Positions 537-56,570 of a stretch of DNA of 64,000 nt are shown piece by piece. Each line of letters begins with the position of its first letter. Positions within the stretch are counted from its first letter, which is position 1. The notes under the pieces are model-generated. The model worked only from the letters and a program-made list of their open reading frames with translations. It did not search any database and had not been told where the DNA came from. The stretch comes from an uncultured Acidobacteriota bacterium (lineage in GTDB: Bacteria; Acidobacteriota; Vicinamibacteria; Vicinamibacterales; CAVVIG01): positions 14,674 through 78,673 of the forward strand of contig CAVWHY010000002.1 of NCBI GenBank assembly GCA_963754955.1. Direction: 5' to 3'. Both the position numbers and the translations under genes were made by a program.

Positions 537-608
537 GGTTCACGGTTCAGGGTTCAGGGTCAGGTTCGCCGTTTGAACCCTGAACGTTGAACCCTGAACC
601 TCTGAACC
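537..608 (+). repeat. Heptamer-periodic imperfect hairpin (unit GGTTCAG x4-5, loop GCCGTTT, complementary CTGAACC-type units)
   Basis: Read directly: ggttcac ggttcag ggttcag ggtcag gttc / gccgttt / gaac cctgaac gttgaac cctgaac ctctgaac. It fills the whole rpsJ-rplC spacer. Confidence 0.85.
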
Positions 609-1315: not shown

Positions 1316-1381
1316 GGCTCGTGGCTCGTGACTCGTGGCTCGGACGTTTCGAGCCACCAGCCACCAGCCGCCAGCCACGAG
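1316..1381 (+). repeat. Heptamer-periodic imperfect hairpin (GGCTCGT x4, loop GACGTTTC, CAGCCAC x4)
   Basis: ggctcgt ggctcgt gactcgt ggctcg / gacgtttc / gagccac cagccac cagccgc cagccac gag. C:C mismatches recur every 7 nt. It fills the rplC-rplD spacer. Confidence 0.85.
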
Positions 1382-2298: not shown

Positions 2299-3124
2299 AT
2301 GCCCATTCGCAAGTTCAATCCCACGTCGCCCGGGCGCCGGTTTCAGACCGGCCACGACTTCGACGAGATCACGACCTCGGAGCCGCACAAGCCGCTGGTC
2401 GAGACGCTCCATCAGTCGGGCGGGCGCAACAACCGCGGCAACCTCACGTCGTGGTGGCGCGGCGGCGGCCACAAGCGGATGTACCGCGTGATCGACTTCA
2501 AGCGGGACAAGCACGACATCCCGGCGAAGGTGTCGACCATCGAGTACGACCCGAACCGGTCCTCGCGCATCGCGCTCGTGACCTACGCGGACGGCGAGAA
2601 GCGCTACATCCTGCAGCCGAGCGGTCTGAAGGTGGGCGACACGATCGTGTCCGGCCAGAACGTGGACATCCTGCTCGGGCAACGCGCTGCCGCTGAAGAA
2701 CATCCCGCTCGGCACGCAGCTCCACAACGTCGAGCTGAAGCCCGGCAAGGGCGGGCAGATTGCGCGCAGCGCCGGATCGTCCGTGCAGCTGGTGGCCAAG
2801 GAAGGCCAGTACGCGTCGGTCAAGATGCCGTCGAGCGAGATTCGCAAGATCTTCAGCGAGTGCTACGCGACGATCGGCCAGGTCGGCAACATCGAGCACG
2901 AGAACGTCGCGATCGGCAAGGCCGGCCGCAGCCGGTGGATGGGCAAGCGCCCGCACGTCCGCGGCGTCGCCATGAACCCGGTCGACCATCCGCTGGGCGG
3001 CGGCGAAGGCAAGACGTCGGGCGGACGCCACCCCGTGTCGCCGTGGGGCCTGCCGACCAAGGGCTACAAGACGCGCAACCGCAAGACCACCGATCAATAC
3101 ATCGTCACGCGGAGACAGAAGTAA
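2299..3124 (+). CDS. rplB: 50S ribosomal protein L2, frame broken by one extra base near 2677-2680
   Basis: The N-terminus (ORF from 2299) and the C-terminus ..[24 protein letters not shown].. (ORF 2783-3124) are both L2. The frames join as ..VDILLG|[25 protein letters not shown]... Length 826 = 3n+1. Confidence 0.9.
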
Positions 3125-3467
3125 TGAGCCGCTCAACCAAGAAAGGTCCGTTCGTCGATACGCCGCTCCTCGAGAAGATCGAGGTGATGAACCGCGGATC
3201 CGAGCGGAAGGTCATCAAGACGTGGTCGCGCCGGTCCACGGTGATCCCCGAGATGGTGGGACACACGCTGGCCGTGCACAACGGCAAGAAGTTCATCCCC
3301 GTGTACGTGACCGAGAACATGGTCGGCCACAAGCTGGGCGAGTTCGCGCCGACGCGGCAGTTCAAGGGTCACACGACGAAGGTGGCGGAGCGGGCGGCCC
3401 AGGCCGCGGCGGCGCCTGGCGCGCCGGGCGGCGCGGCGGCGGCAAGCCGGCCGGCGCGTCGAGCTAG
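3124..3467 (+). CDS. rpsS: 30S ribosomal protein S19, 3' end uncertain (no in-frame stop as sequenced)
   Basis: [50 protein letters not shown] is S19. The ATG overlaps the rplB stop. The nearest plausible stop, TAG 3465-3467, is in another frame (length 3n+2), which implies an indel in the GC-rich tail at about 3400-3460. Confidence 0.8.
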
Positions 3468-3480
3468 GCGGAGAGCAGCG

Positions 3481-3898
3481 ATGATACAAGCGCAGGCAAC
3501 CTCTCGATACATCCGGACCTCGGCGCAGAAGGCCGGGCTCGTGCTCGATCTCATCCGCGGCAAGGACGTCAACCGCGCGCTGGCGACGCTCGAGTTCGCG
3601 CGCAAGTCGGTGGCGGAGGACATCGCGAAGCTGCTCCGGTCGGCGATTGCGAACGCGCAGCAGAAGGACGGCTTCAGCGGCGACGTGGACCGGCTGTTCG
3701 TGTCCGCGTGCTACGCGAACCAGGGGCCGTCGCAGAAGCGCGTGCGGCCGGCGCCGATGGGCCGGGCGTTTCGCGTCCTGAAGCGCACCGCGCACCTGAC
3801 CGTGCACGTCTCGGAGCGGCCGCAGAAGGCTGTGGCCGTGGCGGCGGGCGAAACGAAAAAGCGGGCGCAGAACCCCGAAGAAAGCTGCGAAGGAGTAA
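3481..3898 (+). CDS. rplV: 50S ribosomal protein L22, one extra base near the 3' end
   Basis: [39 protein letters not shown] is L22, with GGAG 9 nt upstream. TAA 3896-3898 is reached if one base is dropped, for example in the C-run 3873-3876, giving ..AQNPKKAAKE*. Length 3n+1. Confidence 0.82.
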
Positions 3899-3900
3899 CC

Positions 3901-4590
3901 GTGGGCCAGAAGGTTCATCCGTTCGGATTCCGGCTCGGCTTCAACAAGACGTGGCGGTCGCGCTGGTACTCCGACCGCGACTACGCGAAGCTGCTGCACG
4001 AGGACCTGGCGCTGCGGTCGACGCTGAAGAAGCGCTTCGCGCACGCCGGCGTCTCGAAGATCGAGACCGAGCGCGCCGCCAACAAGCTGAAGATCGACAT
4101 CTACACCTCGCGGCCCGGGATCATCATCGGCCGCAAGGGCACCGAAGTCGACAAGCTGAAGCAGGAAATCCAGAAGCGCACCAACCGCGAGGTGTTCATC
4201 AACATCCAGGAGATCCAGAAGCCGGAGCTCGATGCCCAGCTCATCTCCGAGTCGGTGGCGATGCAGCTCGAAAAGCGCGTGGCGTTCCGGCGCGCGATGC
4301 GCAAGGCGGTCGAGTCGGCGCTGCGGTTCGGCGCCCGCGGGATCAAGGTGCGCGTGTCGGGCCGGCTGAACGGCGCGGAAATCGCGCGGTCCGAGTGGTA
4401 CCTGCACGGCCAGCTGCCGCTGCAGACGCTGCGCGCGGACATCGACTACGGGTTCGCTGAAGCCAACACGACCTACGGCCAGATCGGCATCAAGGTGTGG
4501 CTGTACAAGGGCGAGCGGCTCGTGCCGCAACGCGGGCGTGAAGAAGAGTACCGAGAGCGGGCCCCACGCCGACCGGCGGCGCGGGCCTAG
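3901..4590 (+). CDS. rpsC: 30S ribosomal protein S3
   Basis: GTG start; [39 protein letters not shown] is S3 (KH domain). 230 codons, intact. Confidence 0.95.
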
Positions 4591-4605
4591 GAGAATTGAG
4601 TATTT

Positions 4606-4703
4606 AGTCATCTGGTCATCTGGTCATCTAGTCATCGTTTGCCAATTGAGCCATTTCACAATTGAGCAACGATGACCAGATGACCAAATGACCAAATGAC
4701 CAG
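4606..4703 (+). repeat. Octamer-built hairpin element, copy 1 (4x GGTCATCT, apical CAATTG stem-loop, 4x AGATGACC)
   Basis: agtcatct ggtcatct ggtcatct agtcatcg .. caattg agccatttca caattg .. cgatgacc agatgacc aaatgacc aaatgacc ag. It ends 15 nt before the rplP ATG. Confidence 0.9.
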
Positions 4704-4718
4704 ATTCGAGATCGCATT

Positions 4719-5145
4719 ATGTTGATGCCGAAGAAGGTCAAGTTCAGGAAACAGCAGCGCGGGCGCATGCGCGGCAAGGCGTGGCGCGGCGGCGACGTGT
4801 CGTTCGGCGACTACGGGCTGAAAGCGCTCGAGCCGTGCTGGCTGACCGACCGCCAGATCGAGGCGGCGCGCGTCGCGATGACGCGGTTCGTCGCGCGCGG
4901 CGGGAAGATCTGGGTGCGCGTGTTCCCCGACAAGCCGATCACGAAGAAGCCGCAGGAAACCCGCATGGGCAAGGGCAAGGGCGCCCCCGAGCAGTGGGTG
5001 GCCGTCGTGAAGCCGGGACGGGTGCTGTTCGAGATGGAAGGCGTGAGCGAGAAGGACGCGCGCGAAGCGATGAAGCTGGCGGCCGCGAAGCTGCCGATTC
5101 TCACGAAGTTCGCGACCCGCTTCTGCGCAGGAGAGAATCCAATGA
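4719..5145 (+). CDS. rplP: 50S ribosomal protein L16, one extra base near the 3' end
   Basis: [45 protein letters not shown] is L16. As sequenced it reads through into rpmC. TGA 5143-5145 is reached after removing one base at about 5117-5125. Length 3n+1. Confidence 0.85.
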
Positions 5146-5334
5146 AGGCCGCGGAACTGCGCGCCCTGGGCGCCGACGAGCTCAACGCGAAGGTGCGCGA
5201 ACTGACCGATCAGCTGTTTCGCCTGCGCATCCAGAAGTCCATGGGACAGCTCGAGGCGCCGGCCAAAGTGAAGATCCGTGCGCCGCGACCTCGCGCGGGT
5301 CAAGACGGTGCTGCAGCAGCAGAAGGCGGGATAG
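5142..5334 (+). CDS. rpmC: 50S ribosomal protein L29, one extra base about 5280
   Basis: [37 protein letters not shown].., then after the shift ..[17 protein letters not shown] (typical L29 end). Length 193 = 3n+1. Confidence 0.85.
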
Positions 5335-5590
5335 ATGGCGACGAAATCCGAGAAAACCGGCGTGGTCGTGAGCAACAAGATGACGAAGAGCATCGTCGTC
5401 GCCGTGGAGTGGCAGGTGCGCCACGGGCTCTACGGGAAAACCGAGCGGCGGACGTCGAAGTTCATGGTCCACGACGAGGAAAATACCGCCAAAGTCGGTG
5501 ACATCGTCGAGATCGTCGAAACGCAGGCCGCTCAGCCGCAGCAAACGCTGGGCGCTCAAGCGCGTGGTGCGGCAGGCGGCGGAGGTCTAA
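5335..5590 (+). CDS. rpsQ: 30S ribosomal protein S17, one extra base about 5525
   Basis: [48 protein letters not shown], then after the shift [21 protein letters not shown]. Length 256 = 3n+1. Confidence 0.88.
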
Positions 5591-5592
5591 CC

Positions 5593-5961
5593 ATGATTCA
5601 GATGCGATCGATCCTCGACGTCGCCGACAACTCGGGCGCCCGCAAGATCGCGGTGATCAACCCGATCGGCGGGTCGACGGGCCGCTACGCGCGCCTCGGC
5701 GACATCGTCACCGCGTCGGTCAAGGAAGCGACGCCCGAGGGCAACGTCAAGAAGGGCGCCGTCGTGAAGGCGGTCATCGTGCGCACCGTCAAGGAGCAGC
5801 GCCGGCGCGACGGCAGCTACATCCGCTTCGATCGCAACGCGGCCGTGCTGATCAACGATCAGAACGAGCCCATCGGCACCCGCGTGTTCGGTCCCGTCGC
5901 CCGCGAACTGCGCGAGCGCCGGTTCATGAAGATCATTTCGCTCGCGCCGGAGGTCCTGTAG
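5593..5961 (+). CDS. rplN: 50S ribosomal protein L14
   Basis: [41 protein letters not shown] is L14. 123 codons. Confidence 0.96.
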
Positions 5962-5965
5962 GGAC

Positions 5966-6298
5966 ATGTCCAGCTTAGCAACGCCGATTCGCAAGAACGA
6001 CAACGTGCTGGTGATTACCGGCAAGGATCGCGGCAAGCGCGGGCGCGTGCTGCGCGTGCTGCCCGACAAGAACCGGTTGATCATCGAGGGCGTGAACCTG
6101 ATCAAGCGCCACACGAAGCCGAACCCCGGCAAGAACGTCAAGGGCGGCATCGTCGAGCGCGAGGCATCGCTGCACGCGTCGAACGTGCAGCTGGTGTGCC
6201 CGGAGTGCGGAGCGCAGACGCGCGTCGGCCGCAAGATTCTCGGCGACGGCCGGAAGGTGCGTATCTGCCGCAAGTGCGAGGGAGTGGTGGACAAATGA
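5966..6298 (+). CDS. rplX: 50S ribosomal protein L24 (with C-terminal CxxC..CxxC zinc ribbon)
   Basis: ORF 5966-6298, [22 protein letters not shown] (KOW) plus CPECG..CRKCEG. Confidence 0.95.
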
Positions 6299-6838
6299 GC
6301 CGCCTGAAGGAGCGCTATCAGCAGGACGTCATCCCGGCCGCTGAAGAAGGAGTTCGGGTACACCAACGTCATGGCCGTCCCGAAGATCCAGAAAGTCGTC
6401 GTCAACATGGGCCTCGGCGAGGCGACGTCGAACGTGAAGATCATCGACACGGGCGCCGACGAGCTCGGACGAATCACGGGGCAGAAGCCGGTGACGCGCC
6501 GGTCGAAGAAGTCGATCGCGCAGTTCAAGGTCCGCAAGGGCCAGCCGGTCGGGACGATGGTCACGCTGCGCGGCGCGCGCATGTGGGAGTTCCTCGACCG
6601 CCTGATGAACATCGCGCTGCCGCGCGTGCGCGACTTCAAGGGCGTCTCGCCCAAGGGCTTCGACGGACGCGGCAATTACACGCTCGGCCTGCGCGACCAG
6701 CTGCTGTTCCCGGAGATCGACTACATGAAGGTCGACAAGGCGCGCGGCATGAACGTCTCGGTCGTCACCACGGCCAAGACGGACGAAGAGGCGAGGAAGC
6801 TGCTGCAGTTCATGGGCATGCCGTTCAGGCAGAACTGA
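6295..6838 (+). CDS. rplE: 50S ribosomal protein L5, one extra base about 6338
   Basis: [15 protein letters not shown], then after the shift [28 protein letters not shown].. (ORF 6371-6838). The ATG overlaps the rplX stop. Length 544 = 3n+1. Confidence 0.9.
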
Positions 6839-6843
6839 CGCGC

Positions 6844-6885
6844 AGGTCACAGGGCAAAAGGCACACGGCAGAGGGCAAAGGGTTA
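6844..6885 (+). repeat. Single-arm heptamer array (AGGGCAA-type x6) running into the rpsN start codon
   Basis: aggtcac agggcaa aaggcac acggcag agggcaa agggtta|tg. Confidence 0.8.
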
Positions 6886-7070
6886 TGGCAACGACGGCCA
6901 AGATCGCGAAAGAACAGAAGAAGCCGAAGTATAAGGTCCGGCTGCGCAACCGCTGCCACCTGTGCGGCCGTCCGCGCGCGTACATGCGGAAGTTCGCGCT
7001 GTGCCGCCTGTGCTTCCGCAAGTTGGCGCTCGAGGGCGACGTCACGGGCGTTACGAAGAGTAGCTGGTGA
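6885..7070 (+). CDS. rpsN: 30S ribosomal protein S14, zinc-binding type Z
   Basis: 61 aa, ..[28 protein letters not shown].. Confidence 0.96.
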
Positions 7071-7074
7071 ATAG

Positions 7075-7170
7075 AGTCATCTGATCATCTGGTCATCTCG
7101 TCTTCGTCGATCAATTGAGCACTTGCAATTGAGCAACGATGACCAGACGACCAGATGACCAAACGACCAG
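7075..7170 (+). repeat. Octamer-built hairpin element, copy 2
   Basis: agtcatct gatcatct ggtcatct cgtcttcg .. caattg agcacttg caattg .. cgatgacc agacgacc agatgacc aaacgacc ag. It ends 19 nt before the rpsH ATG. Confidence 0.9.
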
Positions 7171-7189
7171 ATGAAGTGAGATAGCAGAT

Positions 7190-7600
7190 ATGACTGATCC
7201 GATCGCAGACATGCTCACGCGGATCCGGAATGCCGTGAGCGCGAAGCACACACGCGTCGACATGCCGGCCTCGCGCATCAAGGCCGACATCGCCCGCATC
7301 CTGCAGGACGAGGGCTACATCCAGGGCTTCAAGGTCCTGGACGCGCCGCCCGGCCAGACGACGGCCGTCAGCAAGGTGCTGCGGGTGTTCCTGAAGTACG
7401 GGCCGCACGGCGAGCGGCTCATCACCGGCGTCGAGCGGATCAGCCGCCCCGGCCGCCGTGTCTATTTCGGCCACGACGACGTGCCGGAGGTGCTGGCCGG
7501 GCTCGGCACCAGCATCCTGACCACGTCGCGCGGCGTGATGACCGGGCGGGAAGCCGTCAAGGTCGGCGTCGGCGGCGAAGTGCTCTGTAATATCTGGTAG
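7190..7600 (+). CDS. rpsH: 30S ribosomal protein S8
   Basis: [43 protein letters not shown] is S8. Confidence 0.97.
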
Positions 7601-7634
7601 GACGCGCGACCACCACGAGCGACGGGAAACGAAC

Positions 7635-8175
7635 ATGTCACGTATAGGCAAAAAACCGATCACGATTCCGAAGGGCGTCACCGTCAAGGTCGCCGACGGC
7701 GCGGTCGAAGTGCAGGGCCCGAAGGGCAAGATGCGGCAGCCGTTTCCGGCCGGCATCAACTTCGAGCTCGCGGACGGCGCGCTGCACGGCGAAGCGGTCG
7801 ACCGCCGACCCGGAGCTCGCCAAGTACCACGGCCTGGCGCGCAGTCTGATCGCCAACGCGGTGCAGGGCGTCACCGAAGGCTTCAAGAAGGAGCTCGACA
7901 TCGTCGGCGTCGGCTACCGCGCGGAGCTAAAGGGCAAGCAGGTGATTTTCGCCCTGGGCTACTCGCACGCCGTCGTCTTCGACATTCCGACGGGTATCGA
8001 CGTCGCGATCGACAAGCAGACGCACATCACGGTGACGGGCGTCGATCGGCAGCTGGTCGGCCAGGTGGCGGCGAACATCCGGCGCCTGCGGGAGCCGGAT
8101 CCCTACAAGCAGAAGGGCGTTCGGTACACCGGCGAAGTGCTGAAGAAGAAGGCCGGCAAGACCGGGGCGAAATAG
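7635..8175 (+). CDS. rplF: 50S ribosomal protein L6, one extra base about 7785
   Basis: [19 protein letters not shown].., then ORF 7861-8175 ..[23 protein letters not shown]... Length 541 = 3n+1. Confidence 0.9.
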
Positions 8176-8177
8176 AC

Positions 8178-8552
8178 ATGAAGATTCATACGAAAGCCGA
8201 TCGCCGCGAGCGGATTCACCTCCGCCAGCGCAAGCGGATCACGGGAACGACGGAGCGGCCGCGCCTGAGCGTGTTCCGCAGCGTGTCGCACATCTACGCG
8301 CAGGTCATCGACGACCTGAGCGGCAAGACGCTGGCGTCGGCGTCGTCCACCGATCCGAAGCTGAAGGGCGCGTTCGAGAAGGACGTGCGCGGCGGCAACA
8401 TCAAGGGCGCCGAGGCGATCGGCAAAGCCATCGCCGAGCGATCGATCGACAAGGGCATCAAGCGCGTCGTCTTCGACCGCGGCGGGAACCTGTATCACGG
8501 GCGGATTCGCGCTGTCGCGGATGCCGCACGCAAAGCCGGTCTGGAGTTCTAA
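8178..8552 (+). CDS. rplR: 50S ribosomal protein L18
   Basis: [57 protein letters not shown] is L18. Confidence 0.95.
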
Positions 8553-9071
8553 ATGTTCAGTCGTGAACGCATCGATCCGTCGCAGCTCGACATCAAGGAC
8601 ACCGTCGTCTCGATCAACCGCGTGACCAAGGTTGTCAAGGGCGGCAAGAACCTGAGCTTCAGCGCCCTGGTCGTCGTCGGCGACGGACACGGCGTCGTCG
8701 GGTTCGGCATCGGCAAGGCGAAGGAAGTGCCCTCCGCCATCAAGAAGGGCATCGAGGCGGCGAAGAAGAACCTGATTCGCGTGCCGCTCAAGGGCACCAC
8801 CATCCCGCACCGCATCGTCGGCAAGTTCGGCGCGGGCGCGGTGCTGCTGAAGCCGGCGCCGGACGGCACGGGCATCATCGCGGGCGGCGCGGTCCGCGCC
8901 GTCGTCGAGGCCTGCGGGGTGACGAACATCCTGACGAAGTCGCTGGGATCGGCCAACCCCCACAACGTGGTGCGCGCGACGTTCACGGGGCTCAAATCGC
9001 TGCAGGATCCGCTGAGCATCGCGAGGCTCCGCGGCAAGGACCTCGATCAGCTGGTTCCGGCGAACGCATAG
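8553..9071 (+). CDS. rpsE: 30S ribosomal protein S5
   Basis: ORF 8553-9071, ..[39 protein letters not shown].. Confidence 0.97.
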
Positions 9072-9088
9072 GATTCGGAGATACAGAA

Positions 9089-9289
9089 GTGGCCAACGAA
9101 CGGACGGATAGCAAAGGCGGCATCGTCAAGGTGACGCTGGTGAGGAGCCCGACCGGCTTCGACCGCAAGCAGTCGACGACGGTCACGAGCCTGGGGCTGC
9201 GGCGCATTCGCCACACGGTCGAGTTGAAGGACACGCCGGCCGTGCGGGGCATGATTCACAAGGTCCGTCACCTGGTGACGGTGGAATAG
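9089..9289 (+). CDS. rpmD: 50S ribosomal protein L30
   Basis: GTG start; ..[38 protein letters not shown]. Confidence 0.93.
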
Positions 9290-9302
9290 TGATGGTGAAT
9301 GT

Positions 9303-9402
9303 GGTCATCTCATCATCTGGTCATCTCGTCATCGTCTCGATCAATTGAGACATTGGACAGTTGATCGACGATGACCAGATGACGAGATGACCACATGACC
9401 AG
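9303..9402 (+). repeat. Octamer-built hairpin element, copy 3
   Basis: ggtcatct catcatct ggtcatct cgtcatcg .. caattg agacattgga cagttg .. cgatgacc agatgacg agatgacc acatgacc ag. It ends 16 nt before the rplO ATG. Confidence 0.9.
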
Positions 9403-9418
9403 ATTCGAGAGAGCATTT

Positions 9419-9865
9419 ATGGATTTATCGAATCTCAAACCGCCGAAGGGCGCCAAGCACGTCAAGAAGCGCATCGGGCGCGGCCAGGGGTCGGGCAACG
9501 GCAAGACCGCCGGCCGCGGCCACAAGGGCGCGAAATCGAGGTCGGGTTACAAGTTCAAGCGCGGCTTCGAAGGCGGCCAGATGCCGCTGCACCGGCGCGT
9601 GCCGAAGCGCGGGTTTCACAATCCGACCCGCGTCGAGTACGACGTCGTCAACGTCGACACGCTCGCGGAGCGGTTCGAGGCCGGCACGGTCGTGACGCCG
9701 GAGCTGCTCCGCGAACACCGGCTGCTGCCGGGCGGCGGCCGCCCCCTGAAGGTGCTGGCCCGCGGCGACGTCAGCAAGGCGCTGACGATCCGCGCCCACA
9801 AGTTCAGCGGCAAGGCGGAGGAGAAGGTGAAGGCGGCGGGCGGAACGACGGAGCTGATCGCGTAG
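9419..9865 (+). CDS. rplO: 50S ribosomal protein L15
   Basis: MDLSNLKPPKGAKHVKKRIGRGQGSGNGKTAGRGHKG is L15. The track ORF starts at 9395 inside the repeat, so the ATG at 9419 is preferred. Confidence 0.92.
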   Translation: MDLSNLKPPKGAKHVKKRIGRGQGSGNGKTAGRGHKGAKSRSGYKFKRGFEGGQMPLHRRVPKRGFHNPTRVEYDVVNVDTLAERFEAGTVVTPELLREHRLLPGGGRPLKVLARGDVSKALTIRAHKFSGKAEEKVKAAGGTTELIA

Positions 9866-13088: not shown

Positions 13089-13130
13089 GGGACAAGGGCA
13101 GAGCGCAAAGGGCAAAGGGCAAAGAGCATA
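13089..13130 (+). repeat. Single-arm heptamer array (GGGCAAA-type x6) running into the rpsM start codon
   Basis: gggacaa gggcaga gcgcaaa gggcaaa gggcaaa gagcata|tg. Confidence 0.8.
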
Positions 13131-13504
13131 TGGCACGAATTGCTGGTGTAGACCTTCCCCGGACGAAGCGGGTCGAGATCGGTCTCACGTACATCTTCGG
13201 GATCGGGCGGATGCGCTCGAACGGCATCCTCAAGGACGCGGGGGTCAGCCCCGATGTGCGCGTGAAGGATCTGTCGGAAGACGATGTCCGCAAGATCAGC
13301 CGGGTGATCGAAGAGCAGGGCGGCGTCGAAGGCGACCTCCGCAAGGAAGTGTCGATGAACATCAAGCGGCTGATGGAAATCGGCTGCTACCGCGGGGCGC
13401 GCCACCGGCGCAGCCTGCCCGTCCGGGGGCAGCGGACACGCACGAACGCGCGGACCCGGAAAGGGCCGCGCAAGGGCGCCATCGCGAAGAAGAAGGTCAT
13501 TTAG
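13130..13504 (+). CDS. rpsM: 30S ribosomal protein S13
   Basis: [48 protein letters not shown]. Confidence 0.97.
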
Positions 13505-14605: not shown

Positions 14606-14795
14606 TCCGTCGCGGCCCTGAAAGGGCCGCGCTACGCACGTAGGGCGGGCCTGTCAGGCCCGCCTCGTCACCCGTCGGCCCGCAGCCTTATACAGACCTG
14701 CGGCGGGAGGCCGGCGGTTACTTGCAGGTCTGGAGGCCCGTCTGCGGGCCCGTTGGCGAATCCGGGGAAGAACCCCGGATTAGAGAGGACACGAC
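14606..14795 (+). promoter_or_regulatory. 190-nt structured spacer / rpoA leader with several GC-rich hairpins
   Basis: Hairpins: gcggccc-tgaaa-gggccgc (14612-14630), ggcgggcc-tgtca-ggcccgcc (14644-14664), cagacctgc/gcaggtctg pairing, and aatccgggg-aagaa-ccccggatt (14759-14781) directly 5' of the purine-rich RBS (agagagg). Confidence 0.45.
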
Positions 14796-15776
14796 ATGCT
14801 CTGGAAGGGTTTTCAACGACCGAAGCGGCTGGAGTTCGAGCGCGAGACGCTCACCGATCGGTTCGGACGCTTTTACGCGCAGCCGTTCGAGCGGGGATTC
14901 GGCACGACGATCGGCAATGCGGTACGGCGGGTTCTGTTGTCGTCGATTGAAGGCGCGGCCATCACGGCCGTCAAGATTGACGGGGTGCTCCACGAGTTCT
15001 CGCCCATTCCGGGCGTGGTGGAAGACGCGACGGACATCATCCTGAACCTCAAGCAGATTCCGCTGAAGCTGCACGTCGATCACGCCAAGACACTGGTGAT
15101 CAAGGTGGACAAGGCCGGCGAGGTGCGCGGCCGCGACATCCAGGCGGACGGCGACGTCGAGATTCTCGAACCGGACGCGCATATCGCGACCGTGTCCGAA
15201 GGCGGCAAGCTCCACATGGAGATGCGCATGAAGCGCGGCCGCGGCTACGTCTCGGCCGACAAGAACTTCGACGAAGACCTCGGCATCGGCTGGATCCCGG
15301 TGGACTCGGTCCACTCGCCGGTCAAGAAGGTCAACTACCTGGTCGAGGCGGCGCGCCTTGGACAGACGACCGACTACGACAAGCTCACGATCGACGTCTG
15401 GACGAACGGGTCAATCAACGCGCGCGACGCGGTGTCGCTCGCCGCGAAGCTGATCCGCGATCACCTGAACATCTTCATCAACCTCGAGGAAGGCTCGGGC
15501 GATCAGGCGGAGGCGCTGGCCGACCAGCCGCGCTCCGGCGTCAGCAACGAGAACCTCGACAAGAGCGTCGAGGAACTCGAGCTCTCCGTCCGTTCCTACA
15601 ACTGCCTCAAGAACGCGAACATCAGGACCATTCGCGAACTGGTGCAGAAGACTGAAGCCGAAATGCTCAAGACGAAGAACTTCGGCCGGAAGAGCCTGAA
15701 CGAGATCAAGGAGATCCTGCACACCATGGGTCTCAGCCTCGGGATGCGCGTGGATATGAGCGGAGCGCAGGACTAG
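14796..15776 (+). CDS. rpoA: DNA-directed RNA polymerase subunit alpha
   Basis: 326 aa, ..[27 protein letters not shown]..; C-terminal domain ..[22 protein letters not shown]. Confidence 0.97.
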
Positions 15777-15843
15777 CAAAGGGCATAGGGCAGAGGGCAG
15801 AAGGCAGAGGGAAATTTGCCCTTTGCCTTTTGCCCTTTGCCCT
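15776..15843 (+). repeat. Heptamer-periodic hairpin (GGGCAGA x4, loop AAAT, TTGCCCT x4)
   Basis: gcaaa gggcata gggcaga gggcaga aggcaga ggg / aaat / ttgccct ttgcctt ttgccct ttgccct. It fills the rpoA-rplQ spacer. Confidence 0.88.
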
Positions 15844-25362: not shown

Positions 25363-25364
25363 TT

Positions 25365-25399
25365 CAGTGAGCGGTGATCAGTGATCAGTGATCGGTACG
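25365..25399 (+). repeat. Single-arm heptamer array (CAGTGAT-type x5) in the marR/pdaD divergent spacer
   Basis: cagtgag cggtgat cagtgat cagtgat cggtacg. Same unit as the hairpin inside nadB. Confidence 0.8.
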
Positions 25400-40052: not shown

Positions 40053-41515
40053 GATCGATGAACCGGAAAGAATTTCTCGGCGTGGTGACACGGGGCGCCG
40101 TGGCGTTCGGGGCGACGGCGCTCCCATGGGCGCGGCTCCGCGCAGAGTCGCCGGGCCCTGTCATGGCGACGCTCAGCGCTTACATGGCGGCTGCCGCGGC
40201 GCGGACGCTCCCTGCCGGAGGTCGTGGAGGTGACCAAGCACCACATCCTGGATACGTTCGCCGCGATGATCTCCGGATCGGAACTGCCGCCCGGCCGGGC
40301 GGCCATCGCGCTCGCGCGTGCAGTTGCGGGCGACACCACGGGAACCGTTGCGGGCTCACGCGTCCTCTGCGGTCCGCTCGACGCGGCGCTCGCCAACGGC
40401 GTGCATGGCGCACGCCGACGAAACGGACGATTCGCACGGCCCCTCGCAATCGCATCCGGGTTCGGCTGTCGTGCCGGCGGCGCTGGCGGCCGCCGAGCAG
40501 TTCGGCGCCGACGGCGCCGCGCTTCATCCGCGCCGTCGCGCTGGGCTACGACATCGGCCCGCGGGTGACGATGGCGCTCGGCGGCGTGAGGTTCCGGACC
40601 GAGAGCCACCGCAGCACGCACAGCATCGCCGGCACGTTCGGCGCCTCGGCGGCTGCGGGATGTGTCGCGCGCCTGAACGCGCAGCAGATGCGCTGGCTGC
40701 TCGACTACGCCGCCCAGCAGGCTTCCGGCTTCGCGGCGTGGGAACGCGACACGGATCACATCGAGAAAGGGTTCGTGTTCGCCGGGATGCCGGCCCGCAA
40801 CGGCGTCACGGCCGCTCTTGTCGTCAGCCTGAAGCTGGAGCGGCGTCGACGACGTGTTCTCGGGCGAAGACAACTTCTTCGAGGCGATGTCGCCGGCAGG
40901 CCAATCCCGCGACGCTCGTCGAGCGGCTGGGCGAGCGGTACGAGGTGACGCGGACCGACATCAAGAAATGGACCGTGGGTTCCCCTATCCAGGCGCCGCT
41001 CGACGCGCTGGACAACCTTCTGCGCCGTCGTCCGCTCGACGCCGATCAGGTGCAGCGCGTCGTCGTCCGCCTTGCGTCCAGCGCCGGCGCGGTCGTGAAC
41101 AACCGCGAGATGCCGGACATCTGCCTGCAGCACATGATCGCGGTGATGCTCCTCGACAAGACCGCGTCGTTCGCGGCCGCGCACGACAAGCCGCGGATGC
41201 AGGCTCCCGCGGTTCTCAAGCAGCGCGCGAAGGTCGAACTGGTGCTGGACGAGGAACTCGAGCGCCTGATGCCGCAGCGGCAGGCGATCGTCGAGGTCAC
41301 GTTGACCGACGGCATCGCGGCTCACCGAGCGCGTCGAAGCCGTGCGGGGCACCGCGGCGAACCCGATGAGCCGTGAGGAAGTCGTCCGCAAGTGCCGCGA
41401 CCTGACCGCGCCCGTCCTGGGCCCGGCCGTGGCCGATCGGCTGATCCAGACGGTGCTGACGCTCGAGCAGATCACCGACATCCGCTCGCTCCGGCCGCTC
41501 CTCCAACGCGAGTAG
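40049..41515 (+). pseudogene. MmgE/PrpD-family protein with Tat-like signal; six +1 frame shifts as sequenced
   Basis: Segments: MNRKEFLGVVTRGAVAFGATALPWA.. / EVTKHHILDTFAAMISGS.. / MAHADETDDSHGPSQSHPGSAVVPAAL.. / IRAVALGYDIGPRV..STHSIAGTFGA.. / ..DIKKWTVGSPIQAPLDAL.. / ..RGTAANPMSREEVVRKCRDL... The frame path is 2>0>1>2>0>1>2. Confidence 0.75.
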
Positions 41516-41516
41516 C

Positions 41517-41566
41517 GCAGGCCTTCAGGTCTGCTGGTCCGGCAGGCCTGAAGGCCTGCACTACTT
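41517..41566 (+). repeat. REP-like twin hairpin (TTCA/TGAA loops), family B copy 1
   Basis: gcaggcc-ttca-ggtctgc, then GTCCGGCAGGCCTGAAGGCCTGCACTACTT. The 30-mer recurs at 56541-56570 with 1 mismatch. Confidence 0.75.
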
Positions 41567-41578
41567 CTGTCGCCCCCG

Positions 41579-41620
41579 CGACTGCCGACTGCTGACTGTC
41601 GACTGCCGACTGGTTACTGT
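41579..41620 (+). repeat. Single-arm heptamer array (CGACTGC-type x6)
   Basis: cgactgc cgactgc tgactgt cgactgc cgactgg ttactgt. It ends 17 nt before GTG 41638. Confidence 0.8.
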
Positions 41621-53406: not shown

Positions 53407-55046
53407 GTGCATCTCTCCCCGGATTTCATCGTCATCGGCAGCGGCATCGCCGGGCTGCGGGCGGCGATTGCGCTCGCGCCCGTCGGCCGCGTCCTGATTC
53501 TGACCAAGGCCGAACCGACCGAGAGCAATACCGGCTACGCGCAGGGCGGCATCGCCGTCGCGCTCGGCGACGACGACAGCCCCGCGCTCCACGCGGCGGA
53601 CACGGTGAAGGCCGGCGACGCGCTCTGCGACGAAGAGGCCGTGCGGGTGCTGGTCGAGCAGGGACCGCCGCTACGTCACGGAGCTCGTCGAGTGGGGCAC
53701 GCGCTTCGACCGCGACGCCGAGCGGGCGCCTGTCGCGAGGACGGGAAGCCGCCCACAGCGTCCGGCGCGTGCTGCACGCAGGCGACACGACGGGACGGGA
53801 GATCGCGCCGCGTCCTGTGGCGTCGTGTCAGCGCCCTGCCGACGGTCGAAACAGCGAACCACGCGCTGGTGACCGGAGCTGCTCGTCGAGGACGGGCGCG
53901 TGGCCGGCGTCAGGTTCTTCGATCAGCTCGGGTTTCCGCGGGACGCGCGGGCGCGCGCCACGCTGCTGGCGACCGGCGGGGCCGGACACGTCTTCAAGGA
54001 AACCACGAATCCGCCCGTGGCGACCGGCGACGGCGTGGCGCTCGCGTTCCACGCCGGGGCCCGCGTCGCCGATCTCGAGTTCGTCCAGTTTCATCCCACC
54101 GCGCTGAATGTCCGCGGCGCTCCGCGGTTCCTGATTTCAGAAGCGCTGCGCGGCGACGGCGCCCGGCTGCTCAACGGCCGGGGCGACGCGTTCATGGGCG
54201 GCTATCATCCCGACGGCGATCTCGCGCCGCGCGACGTCGTCGCCCGGAGCATCGTTCGCGAGATGGAGCGGACCGGCGGGCCTGTGTTCCTCTCGCTGTC
54301 GCATCTCGATCCCGACTACGTCGTCCATCGCTTCCCGACGATTGCCGACATGTGCCGCCAGATCAATCTCGACCTGGCGACGCGATCCGATTCCCGTCGG
54401 ACCCGCGGCGCACTACATCATGGGAGGCGTCGAAACGGACCACTGGGGTCGGACCTCGATTCCGGGCCTGTTCGCCGCCGGCGAGGTGGCCTGCACGGGC
54501 GTTCACGGCGCCAATCGCCTGGCGAGCAACTCGCTGCTCGAAGGACTCGTGTTCGGCGCGCGCGCAGCGACGGCGATGCAGCAGGCTGACGGTGGCCAGT
54601 GGTCAGTGGCCGGTGATCAGTGGGTGCCGGCGCCACCGATCACTGATCACCGATCACCGATCACCGATGACGGATCACCGATCGCTGCCAACCGGCGTTC
54701 GTCGAGCGACCACCGTTCGCTGACGACCAGCGAAGTCCGCGACCTGATGTGGAAGTCGGTCGGCCTGTTCCGGACGGGCGAGGGTCTGCGCGATGCCGGC
54801 GCGAAACTCGAAGCCGCGTACCGCGCACATCGTCGCGCGCTCGACGACGCGCGCGCTGACGATGCGGATGCCTGGAAGCAATTCAACCTCGTGACCGTGG
54901 CGCGACTGATCGCGCGCGCCGCGCTGCGTCGGCAGGAGAGCCGCGGCGCCCACTACCGGCAGGATTTTCCGGAGAGGGACGATGTACACTGGAAAATCCA
55001 CCTGGTAGATCACATCGACGCATATGGCGAAAAACGACAAGACTGA
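53407..55046 (+). pseudogene. nadB: L-aspartate oxidase, about five +1 shifts, plus an in-frame repeat insertion
   Basis: FIVIGSGIAGLRAA..YAQGGIA.. / ..LLATGGAG.VF..TTNP..ATGDGVALA..AGA...DLEFVQFHPT.. / ..[60 protein letters not shown]. Confidence 0.85.
54590..54687 (+). repeat. Heptamer-periodic hairpin (CAGTGRY x5, loop CCGGCG, TCACCGA x7) inside the nadB coding sequence
   Basis: cggtggc cagtggt cagtggc cggtgat cagtggg tg / ccggcg / ccaccga tcactga tcaccga tcaccga tcaccga tgacgga tcaccga tcgctg. Translated as ..[32 protein letters not shown].. Confidence 0.85.
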
Positions 55047-56519: not shown

Positions 56520-56570
56520 GCGGGGCTTCAGCCCCGCCGTGTCCGGCAGCCCTGAAGGCCTGCACTACTT
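56520..56570 (+). repeat. REP-like twin hairpin, family B copy 2 (between convergent proS and the HEAT gene)
   Basis: gcggggc-ttca-gccccgc, then GTCCGGCAGCCCTGAAGGCCTGCACTACTT. The minus-strand gene's stop codon (56565-56567) lies inside the repeat. Confidence 0.75.

Follow-up and report, generated by a model that had tools for sequence, protein, structure and literature searches.

Hairpins between genes are known from several bacterial systems. Hairpins of the Correia (NEMIS) elements of Neisseria are cut by RNase III, those of the ERIC (YPAL) elements of enterobacteria alter mRNA stability, and the duplexes of Correia and repetitive extragenic palindromic (REP) elements are known to be cut by RNase III or to block 3' exonucleases. 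Intercistronic RNase III hairpins also occur in the early region of phage T7 and in the rplL-rpoB spacer of Escherichia coli. In addition, the STRR heptanucleotide repeats of heterocystous cyanobacteria are lineage-specific, intergenic tandem 7-nt arrays, with several unit families per genome, that are transcribed with their neighbours. In this study, a 64,000-nt stretch of DNA from an uncultured Acidobacteriota bacterium (contig CAVWHY010000002.1, positions 14,674 to 78,673; hereafter the window) was analyzed. Its first 16 kb are filled by the S10-spc-alpha ribosomal-protein cluster on the + strand, in which three hairpins built of tandem octamers lie in the rpsC-rplP, rpsN-rpsH and rpmD-rplO spacers. 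Our results indicate that these hairpins are probably copies of a dispersed, non-coding, non-autonomous foldback (REPIN/MITE-like) repeat of Vicinamibacteria (Acidobacteriota), co-transcribed in the operon.

REPs and REPINs, defined here with their RAYT tyrosine transposases as in PMC3733652 and PMC3116915, carry an unpaired GTAG (or CGTC) tetranucleotide at one end (PMC3733652). MITEs (miniature inverted-repeat transposable elements) are recognized by terminal inverted repeats of at least 10-15 bp and target-site duplications of 2-10 bp (PMC11602168). The repeat described below is a bacterial extragenic palindromic repeat with foldback architecture, and its copies are not dedicated ribosomal-protein control elements.

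Three octamer foldback elements in the S10-spc-alpha cluster

The window has a G+C content of 66%. The genes bordering the three spacers (S3/L16, S14/S8 and L30/L15) were identified by synteny with annotated relatives and by tblastn. A preliminary description of the window placed hairpins at 4606-4703, 7075-7170 and 9303-9402. In each of them, it described four tandem octamers (consensus GGTCATCT) followed by an apical CAATTG/CAATTG stem, with CAGTTG in copy 3, and then four complementary octamers ahead of a CCAGAT tail. Positions and anatomy of this core agree with the sequence, but the proposed extent of ~98 nt was too short: the inverted termini (T)GAATYT...ARATTC(A) lengthen each copy, and the 32-nt apex itself consists of four octamers (Table 1). 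The copies are near-perfect hairpins of ~110 nt that fill their spacers of 128 nt (rpsC-rplP), 119 nt (rpsN-rpsH) and 129 nt (rpmD-rplO). These spacers are indeed abnormally long, as had been proposed, given that the same junctions measure 13, 28 and 5-7 nt in close relatives. The distances given earlier between the hairpins and the neighbouring codons were borne out by stop codons at 4588-4590, 7068-7070 and 9287-9289 and by the downstream start codons (Table 1). In copy 2, the terminus opens with the three bases of the rpsN stop codon TGA.

When up to 3 mismatches were allowed, the motif GGTCATCTGGTCATCT matched the window 18 times, and all 18 matches were within the three elements, whereas 0.39 matches were expected by chance; 18 matches were reached in 0 of 100 shuffles. 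Sense RNAs of copies 1, 2 and 3 were predicted to fold with -58.3, -42.2 and -57.4 kcal/mol, respectively (z = -10.2, -4.3 and -5.6), and antisense RNAs with the more stable values of -69.2, -61.6 and -59.7 kcal/mol. Neither inside the elements nor nearby was any promoter-like site detected. Terminator-like sites in the window were at chance level (12 versus 12.2 expected), with none in any octamer copy and one in a tandem-unit hairpin, the heptamer hairpin at 15776-15843 (site at 15803-15820). An assembly artefact as the source of the hairpins was ruled out by the presence of the same elements in the short-read JGI contigs L001 and L127-L129. Here and below, L-numbers denote contigs or loci other than the window. 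Relatives were reached via S8 homologues, as the exact S8 of the window is not on record.

Table 1. Coordinates of the octamer elements, their downstream genes and the heptamer hairpins in the window
Feature	Coordinates	Strand	Location and details
Octamer foldback element, copy 1	4598..4707	.	rpsC-rplP spacer
Copy 1, left terminus	4598-4605		GAGTATTT
Copy 1, left arm	4606-4637		four octamers
Copy 1, apex	4638-4669		four TTGNNCAA-type octamers
Copy 1, right arm	4670-4701		
Copy 1, right terminus	4702-4707		AGATTC
Octamer foldback element, copy 2	7068..7174	.	rpsN-rpsH spacer
Copy 2, left terminus			TGAATAG
Copy 2, left arm	from 7075		
Copy 2, right-arm end	at 7172		...CGACCAGAT
Octamer foldback element, copy 3	9296..9406	.	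rpmD-rplO spacer
Copy 3, left terminus	9296-9302		TGAATGT
Copy 3, left arm	9303-9334		
Copy 3, apex	9335-9368		
Copy 3, right arm	9369-9400		
Copy 3, right terminus	9401-9406		AGATTC, then GAGAGAGCATTT and the rplO start codon
rplP (L16)	4719..5141	+	start 11 nt past the end of copy 1; 3' coordinate approximate (indel fuses the L16 and L29 frames)
rpsH (S8)	7190..7600	+	start 15 nt past the end of copy 2
rplO (L15)	9419..9865	+	conserved start ATGGATTTATCG at 9419
Heptamer foldback hairpin (GGTTCAG)n/(CTGAACC)n	537..608	.	rpsJ-rplC; unit family recurs at unrelated loci L059 and L097
Heptamer foldback hairpin (GGCTCGT)n/(CCAGCCA)n	1316..1378	.	rplC-rplD
Heptamer foldback hairpin (GGGCAGA)n/(TTTGCCC)n	15776..15843	.	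rpoA-rplQ
Heptamer foldback hairpin (GTGATCA/GTGGCCA)n/(CACCGAT)n	54592..54683	.	only one in the window outside the ribosomal-protein region

The stretch GAGATCGCATT between copy 1 and the rplP start is the native ribosome-binding region, which is present at the empty site too. Ahead of rplO, GAGAGA accompanies copy 3 and is missing from the empty site. The ATG at 9395, which an open reading frame (ORF) finder took as the rplO start, is inside the right arm of copy 3. Similarly, the JGI call for rplO in L001 (156 amino acid residues) starts at the hairpin-internal ATG, and the start conserved at empty sites gives 148 residues. Insertions of the repeat thus generate false starts upstream of the true one.

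Several reading frames of the window are interrupted or fused: rplB is frameshifted (~2680), a 763-codon ORF merges S19, L22 and S3 (2299-4590), and L16 is merged with L29 (4719-5501). Because similar fusions recur in the ENA long-read contigs L002 and L003 and all genes are intact in the short-read JGI contig L001, these frameshifts are read as long-read assembly indels with no biology behind them.

A dispersed repeat family of Vicinamibacteria

The preliminary description treated the hairpins as a private feature of rplP, rpsH and rplO. This did not hold: scanning 185,579 species-representative genomes with the strict pattern TCATCTGGTCATC-N30-60-ATGACCAGA identified a family of at least 109 loci, spread over intergenic contexts of every kind; the locus counts are lower bounds and not whole-genome totals. 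All but a handful of the loci were in metagenome-assembled genomes (MAGs) labelled Acidobacteriota, Vicinamibacteria, Vicinamibacterales or Luteitalea, and the MAG MFD03975.bin.1.62 had at least 24 loci among the matches listed. Microflora Danica (MFD) MAGs were the closest named records. A looser search of the 0.81 Mb of flanking DNA gave ~8 further, unascertained copies, or ~10 per Mb. No copies were found in the viral contigs, plasmids or phages searched. Three matches were in MAGs labelled outside Vicinamibacteria: L018 (Solirubrobacterales) and L092 (Terriglobia), which on inspection contain a full element (termini GAATCT...AGATTC in L018), and L081 (Pseudomonadota), known from the pattern match alone. 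Mis-binning, loose labels or horizontal transfer may account for these labels. Two other matches seem to be due to chance: L050, which is inside a coding region, and L061 from Tetragenococcus.

In agreement with the earlier statement that the element matches no described RNA family, Rfam gave 0 hits at the gathering score. Searching by E-value added nothing beyond generic matches to long hairpins: sub-threshold models of eukaryotic miRNA precursors, and RNA-OUT with E = 0.44. The literature, which was searched with the literal repeat sequence included, gave no description of the repeat; the family is apparently undescribed, a statement that is provisional as the literature coverage was incomplete.

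Anatomy was established from 110 copies, arm-pairing statistics from 43 canonical copies and genomic context from 103 classifiable copies. The canonical form is (T)GAATYT, (GGTCATCT)x4, a 32-nt apex of four TTGNNCAA octamers, (AGATGACC)x4 and ARATTC(A). The modal form of 4+4 octamers was found in 44 of the 110 copies, the units per arm ranged from 2 to 10, and owing to this variable unit number the copies align poorly. In the main subfamily, the apex is exactly 32 nt long and consists of four self-complementary TTGNNCAA-type octamers, and an 8-nt period runs throughout the ~110-nt element. Termini and arms together form inverted repeats of ~38 nt. With arms of tandem short units and little unique middle, the element has a foldback architecture. 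The termini have a clear consensus (A in 91% at -4, T in 86% at -3 and T in 85% at -1), and conservation ends farther out. No flanking direct repeat of any offset or length was detected in the 110 copies, and no target-site duplication in the comparison of empty and filled sites; the only signal was the self-complementary AT inside the termini. Moreover, in sister families the GAATCT termini are kept and the unit is swapped in both arms for GGTAATCG, GGTGATCT or GGTGAATT.

Hairpins of this kind might also grow in situ without any insertion, by replication slippage of short units and arm-to-arm conversion of a small palindrome, in which case the similarity of the copies would be convergent. The variation of 2-10 units per arm and the finding of one architecture with many unit sequences are consistent with such growth. 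So are the 279 unpaired tandem arrays found in ~1 Mb, the single unit-like TGACCAGAT at the 'empty' rpsN-rpsH site, and the unit-level homogenisation by which orthologous heptamer hairpins differ between close relatives (L001 versus L002, rpsJ-rplC). However, more than 100 GGTCATCT copies at unrelated loci in many MAGs have the non-unit termini GAATYT/ARATTC, the modal 4+4 form and the apex subfamilies in common, an outcome that independent growth would not give. In addition, the empty rpmD-rplO site (TAG-GCATTTT-ATG) contains no seed unit. Origin in situ is thus regarded as improbable.

The preliminary description had looked to compensatory changes in the arms, but almost none of the changes were copy-specific: Watson-Crick complementarity of the arms was 82.7% within a copy versus 81.4 +/- 0.7% between copies, a marginal difference, and transition (wobble-type) mismatches were equally frequent on the two strands (5.5 versus 5.3%). 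Each copy thus decays from a shared consensus, its two arms independently of one another, with no local compensation keeping them paired. Six orthologous or paralogous copies had compensatory changes at the arm-apex boundary, and the palindrome is kept at the level of the family. Of 61 copies between co-directional genes, 32 were predicted to fold more stably as the sense strand and 27 as the antisense strand (Wilcoxon p = 0.50). Together, these values speak for a repeat at the level of DNA and not for an RNA motif under selection site by site. An antisense function, prompted by the antisense folding of the window copies, was rejected, as the preference vanishes over these 61 copies and over operon hairpins generally.

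Another test named in the preliminary description, that of copies elsewhere in the genome, yielded both such copies and a positional preference. The copies were intergenic, typically 0-13 nt past a stop codon, and 67, 25 and 11 of the 103 classifiable ones were between co-directional, convergent and divergent genes, respectively. On 41 of the 56 gene-end-abutting sides with a clear frame, the stop codon began 7-20 nt ahead of the first octamer; at 8 of these 41 sides, it was the first three bases of the TGAATYT terminus (TGA in 7 of the 8), similar to copy 2 of the window. Furthermore, ~14 of ~111 copies (~12%) were in ribosomal-protein or tRNA (translation) loci, which make up <1% of the genome. 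The excess is >10-fold, a rough value because orthologous copies across species are not independent events. The excess concerned cistron junctions of the str/S10/spc operons together with a tRNA cluster. The sites included L30-L15 in at least 8 species, S14-S8 in at least 6, S3-L16, L29-S17 and S7-EF-G, as well as three copies upstream of rpsL and a tRNA Thr-Gly-Tyr-Thr cluster in two MAGs.

This distribution already refutes an assignment as autoregulatory leaders, i.e., mRNA sites for L16, S8 or L15 or for the repressors of their operons, to which we give practically no credence. Although the window copies are upstream of ribosomal-protein genes, that of S8 included, the same sequence precedes three unrelated proteins, is found at over 100 non-ribosomal loci, is missing from close relatives and has no Rfam leader match. 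Ribosomal-protein leaders are found at one orthologous site in one operon and have an Rfam model or mimic rRNA; the octamer family does none of this and forms a regular duplex, unlike an irregular rRNA-mimic site. It is also very improbable that the GGTCATCT octamers bind a nucleoid, replication or regulatory protein of the host at the DNA level, with the palindrome being incidental. The octamer is conserved class-wide, whereas flanks and apex are not, the hairpin is strand-symmetric, and four 8-bp units (32 bp) equal about three turns of B-DNA, which is arithmetic and not a test. Against such an array, sister families with other units retain the architecture, the copies are at the 3' ends of genes and not at promoters (11 of 103 between divergent genes), the elements and their surroundings are free of promoter-like sites, and no candidate protein is known.

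Polymorphism of the elements among close relatives

The three junctions were compared on contigs of relatives, among them those whose S8 is 99% identical to that of the window. At the rpsC-rplP junction, filled orthologues were found in L002, L003, L126/L067 and L120. The junction is empty in L001 and L008 (13 nt, TAG-AGAGATCGCATT-ATG) and carries a 31-nt remnant retaining ...GTCCAGATTC-GAGATCGCATT in L127, a variant-unit element in L007 and an unrelated heptamer hairpin in L129. The rpsN-rpsH junction is filled in L002, L126-L129, L102 and L075, is 28 nt long with the solo right end ACTGACCAGATTT in nine relatives (L001 and L003-L010), and contains other hairpin families in L120-L125 and L051. 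Finally, the rpmD-rplO junction is filled in L001, L002, L126, L046, L051, L090 and L058 and empty (5-7 nt) in seven relatives among L003-L010.

The contigs L126, L127 and L129 encode one and the same S8 protein and have three different S3-L16 spacers. Therefore, the elements are dispensable and turn over faster than ribosomal proteins change. Within short periods, copies come and go or are truncated, and no target-site duplication is left. That they are present, absent or reduced to remnants among strains with identical or 99% identical S8 does not fit the locus-specific role considered in the preliminary description. Compared with L126, the species representative closest to it, the window showed 92-95% identity in the arms, 91-97% in the adjoining coding DNA and only 70% in the apex, which evolves fast.

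Comparison with described repeats

The octamer family behaves most like REPINs. Similar to REPs and REPINs, its members are short palindromes outside genes whose copies number in the tens to hundreds and are placed for the most part immediately downstream of a coding region and within operons. They also combine vertical persistence at orthologous sites across species with strain polymorphism. Also similar to REPINs, they form long hairpins of ~100 nt and lack a target-site duplication. Different from REPs and REPINs, however, they carry no GTAG/CGTC tag and have (T)GAATYT ends on both sides, and their arms are tandem octamers rather than two self-folding REPs. A search of the window and of 0.8 Mb of flanking DNA gave no RAYT flanked by the octamer repeat. 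Compared with DDE-derived MITEs, the ~38-nt inverted repeats of the octamer family are within the range for terminal inverted repeats, but the target-site duplication is missing.

Similar to the octamer elements, Correia and ERIC elements are 100-150 nt long, non-coding, intergenic or intercistronic, have inverted termini and form long RNA hairpins. By analogy, they are probably the best model for the effect of operon copies on mRNA. However, they duplicate their target site (TA for Correia), their core is not palindromic and a short tandem period is missing inside them, whereas the octamer element is an 8-nt-periodic palindrome throughout, with no duplication. Long duplexes between cistrons that leave the next ribosome-binding site free, as predicted for the octamer copies, are also a property of the T7 and rplL-rpoB hairpins, which are unique, conserved, irregular and at fixed sites rather than a dispersed repeat. 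With the STRR repeats, the octamer family has in common lineage-specific intergenic tandem units and several unit families, but STRRs are described as direct arrays rather than obligate inverted pairs and belong to another phylum and other units. The eukaryotic Foldback transposons (Drosophila FB, Galileo and Tetris) also have long inverted termini composed of short tandem arrays, little or no unique middle and variable unit numbers (PMC4079207; PMC3573991). Different from the bacterial octamer element of 110 nt without duplication, they are kilobase-scale, generate 7-9-bp duplications and have known or suspected transposases (PMC4079207; PMC3573991). The octamer element is one-tenth of their size, and the two resemble each other in architecture only.

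Genuine GTAG-tagged REPs (GTAGTGCAGGCCTTCAGGCCTGC) share the window at 41512-41564, where two are arranged head to head like a REPIN, and at 56546-56568; they are a clearly separate family. They are also found in L001 (15710-15732) and L005 (2269-2291). In L005 and L007-L009 they occupy the spacer between rplE and rpsN, and in L001, L003 and L004 the one between infA and rpmJ. Thus, ribosomal junctions gather several unrelated palindromic repeat families.

Tandem-unit hairpins in other operon spacers

The preliminary description overlooked heptamer hairpins of like architecture in the other long spacers of the operon, rpsJ-rplC, rplC-rplD and rpoA-rplQ (Table 1). The last of these is absent in L001 (3-nt spacer) and present in L004 and L126. 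Overall, the 16.4-kb ribosomal region contains 6 tandem-unit hairpins versus 1 in the other 47.6 kb of the window. In ~1 Mb of loci, Tandem Repeats Finder identified 132 inverted pairs of arrays with a period of 7-9, ~30 of them with units that bear no relation to GGTCATCT and, in some cases, turn up again at unrelated loci. Relatives with 89-90% S8 identity have the majority of their operon junctions swollen. In one of the loci, L120, 19 of 31 junctions measure 45 nt or more, and nearly all of the long ones fold into tandem-unit hairpins. A protein-guided metagenome scan revealed such hairpins in loci with at least 73% S8 identity and in a separate group with 50-57% S8 identity and 53-60% G+C, in which the cluster names point to Pyrinomonadaceae (class Blastocatellia) for some members and merely to Acidobacteriota for others; the intermediate and low-G+C loci of the scan had no hairpins. 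The GGTCATCT family belongs to a larger class of acidobacterial hairpins with arms of tandem 7-9-nt units. Junctions filled by tandem-unit hairpins in two acidobacterial classes are a more interesting result than the single family.

These findings bear on the possibility that the hairpins are functional operon punctuation, selected as intercistronic modules (RNase III sites, 3'-end stabilisers or translational insulators) in highly expressed operons, with their repeat nature merely reflecting how such hairpins arise. The share of copies in translation loci, the concentration of tandem-unit hairpins in the ribosomal region and the swollen junctions of L120 are in line with it, as is the occurrence of different unit families by lineage at the same junction in Vicinamibacteria and Pyrinomonadaceae. 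Moreover, every hairpin stops 11-19 nt ahead of the start codon, deletion remnants retain the terminus closest to it, and the arms evolve as slowly as coding DNA. However, many close relatives have tight, hairpin-free junctions, from which it follows that none is required. Neither the octamer family nor the operon hairpins of the tandem-unit class generally (42 versus 28, Wilcoxon p = 0.52) prefer the sense strand for folding, and the arms are nearly devoid of copy-specific compensation. Translation loci account for a minority of the copies, and convergent or divergent genes flank 36 of 103. Selected punctuation, the main rival reading, therefore seems unlikely to us, although less so than growth in situ. 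A still broader proposal, of which we are equally doubtful, is that Acidobacteriota, at least Vicinamibacteria and Pyrinomonadaceae, punctuate their most highly expressed operons with interchangeable hairpins of tandem 7-9-nt units, which would be seeded after stop codons, maintained and spread in a structure-specific rather than sequence-specific manner, GGTCATCT being the most successful lineage. If this proposal were true, the hairpins would be intercistronic modules for processing, stabilisation or insulation whose unit sequence is almost arbitrary.

Other repeats were noted in the same DNA. Unpaired purine-rich heptamer arrays (GGGCAAA/GGGCAGA)n are directly upstream of the rpsN and rpsM starts (6840-6884 and 13091-13135) and conserved in relatives; they might be a ribosome-binding region, and their unit pairs with its complement in the hairpin at 15776-15843. 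Outside the ribosomal region, there are intergenic unpaired arrays of (TCAGTGA)n at 25364-25396 and (CGACTGC)n at 41579-41620, the former being complementary to the right arm, at 54634-54683, of the heptamer hairpin there (91% over 33 nt). Several operon junctions of other relatives contain a further structured repeat of dispersed occurrence, which ends in ...GCGGGGGTGGGGCCCCGCGAGAGA and has CGCGAGCAC-CGCGGTGCGAGCGCG hairpins ahead of it: L124 (7223-7452, 2924-3009 and 11417-11486), L126 (3242-3421 and 4076-4218) and L130. At the S3-L16 junction of L124, it is present as three tandem copies.

The rpsD-rpoA spacer (window 14667-14760) contains a ~94-nt core that is 86-97% identical in every relative compared (L001-L004, L090, L120-L122, L124 and L126), whereas every other spacer is hypervariable. 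In a pseudoknot model (6-14:43-51, 27-35:58-66 and 15-23:67-80), 99.5% of cells are paired and 4 pairs have compensatory changes. Its covariation score was reached by 0 of 500 shuffles, and there was no Rfam match. On this model, the core is a candidate for a new leader RNA upstream of rpoA.

Proposed spread and effect on mRNA

The repeat is proposed to spread by a copy or transposition process that requires the hairpin and leaves no duplication, because sister families swap the unit in both arms and keep the termini, and no duplication was found. As the agent, a RAYT/TIRYT-like HUH/tyrosine enzyme that recognises structure in single-stranded DNA would be the most plausible candidate. RAYT/TIRYT enzymes have been reported with long inverted repeats in Acidobacteria (PMC3733652).

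Within an operon, a copy would be co-transcribed and form a ~45-bp RNA hairpin that ends 11-19 nt ahead of the start codon. Translation initiation would survive, with the native purine-rich ribosome-binding stretch kept or supplied. The predicted sense-strand stems comprise ~40-45 pairs, compared with the near-continuous duplex of at least ~20 bp expected of RNase III substrates. Such a duplex would be both a substrate of RNase III and a barrier to 3' exonucleases, by which polycistronic mRNA would be cut into stabilised segments. This effect is probably tolerated or mildly useful and not the reason why the element exists. Of the functions that the preliminary description listed, a small selfish element landing in operon spacers is the best fit, ahead of processing or stability signal, translational insulator and protein-binding site. 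The enrichment in translation operons may reflect either an insertion bias toward heavily transcribed DNA or selection for intercistronic hairpins, which the data do not separate.

Several results weigh against a mobile, non-autonomous repeat. Because no transposase or autonomous partner was found in the window or in the 0.8 Mb around copies, mobility is inferred solely from distribution and polymorphism. To find a mobiliser, codon-scored ORFs lying between clustered copies were examined, 3,560 ORFs of 109 loci were clustered all against all, and 10 window ORFs were compared with Pfam. Only housekeeping families came up, for instance PQQ dehydrogenase, ECF sigma factor, ABC ATPase and sensor kinase. 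No pair of solo arms enclosing a gene, as sought for a full-length insertion sequence with the same termini, was found in the examined loci. Moreover, the >10-fold excess in translation operons is unlike a purely deleterious parasite, and the persistence of the element at L30-L15 and S14-S8 across species with 84-99% identical S8 also points away from a pure parasite. The same junctions hold hairpins of unrelated unit sequence in other lineages, which fits selection for a hairpin at this place as well as an insertion hot spot. Whole spacers, including the ribosome-binding region, are sometimes replaced (L129), and some of the turnover may be allele exchange by homologous recombination and not transposition. 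Finally, the copy census (at least 109 loci) is a lower bound and not a whole-genome count.

Implications

Ribosomal-protein operons are among the most compact and conserved loci of bacteria, yet hairpin repeats enlarge as many as 19 of 31 junctions and turn over between strains with identical ribosomal proteins. The octamer family is a well-defined bacterial case of foldback architecture, with tandem-unit arms, an 8-nt period throughout and no target duplication, and offers a handle on a mechanism of mobilisation or generation. In practice, caution is warranted: short-read assemblies are interrupted at such repeats, and a false start codon may be supplied, as for the rplO ORF called from the in-hairpin ATG. 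Conversely, the repeats are usable as hypervariable strain markers for abundant, poorly cultured soil bacteria, and their natural filled, empty and remnant alleles are a ready-made experiment on the roles of long intercistronic hairpins in mRNA processing and stoichiometry.

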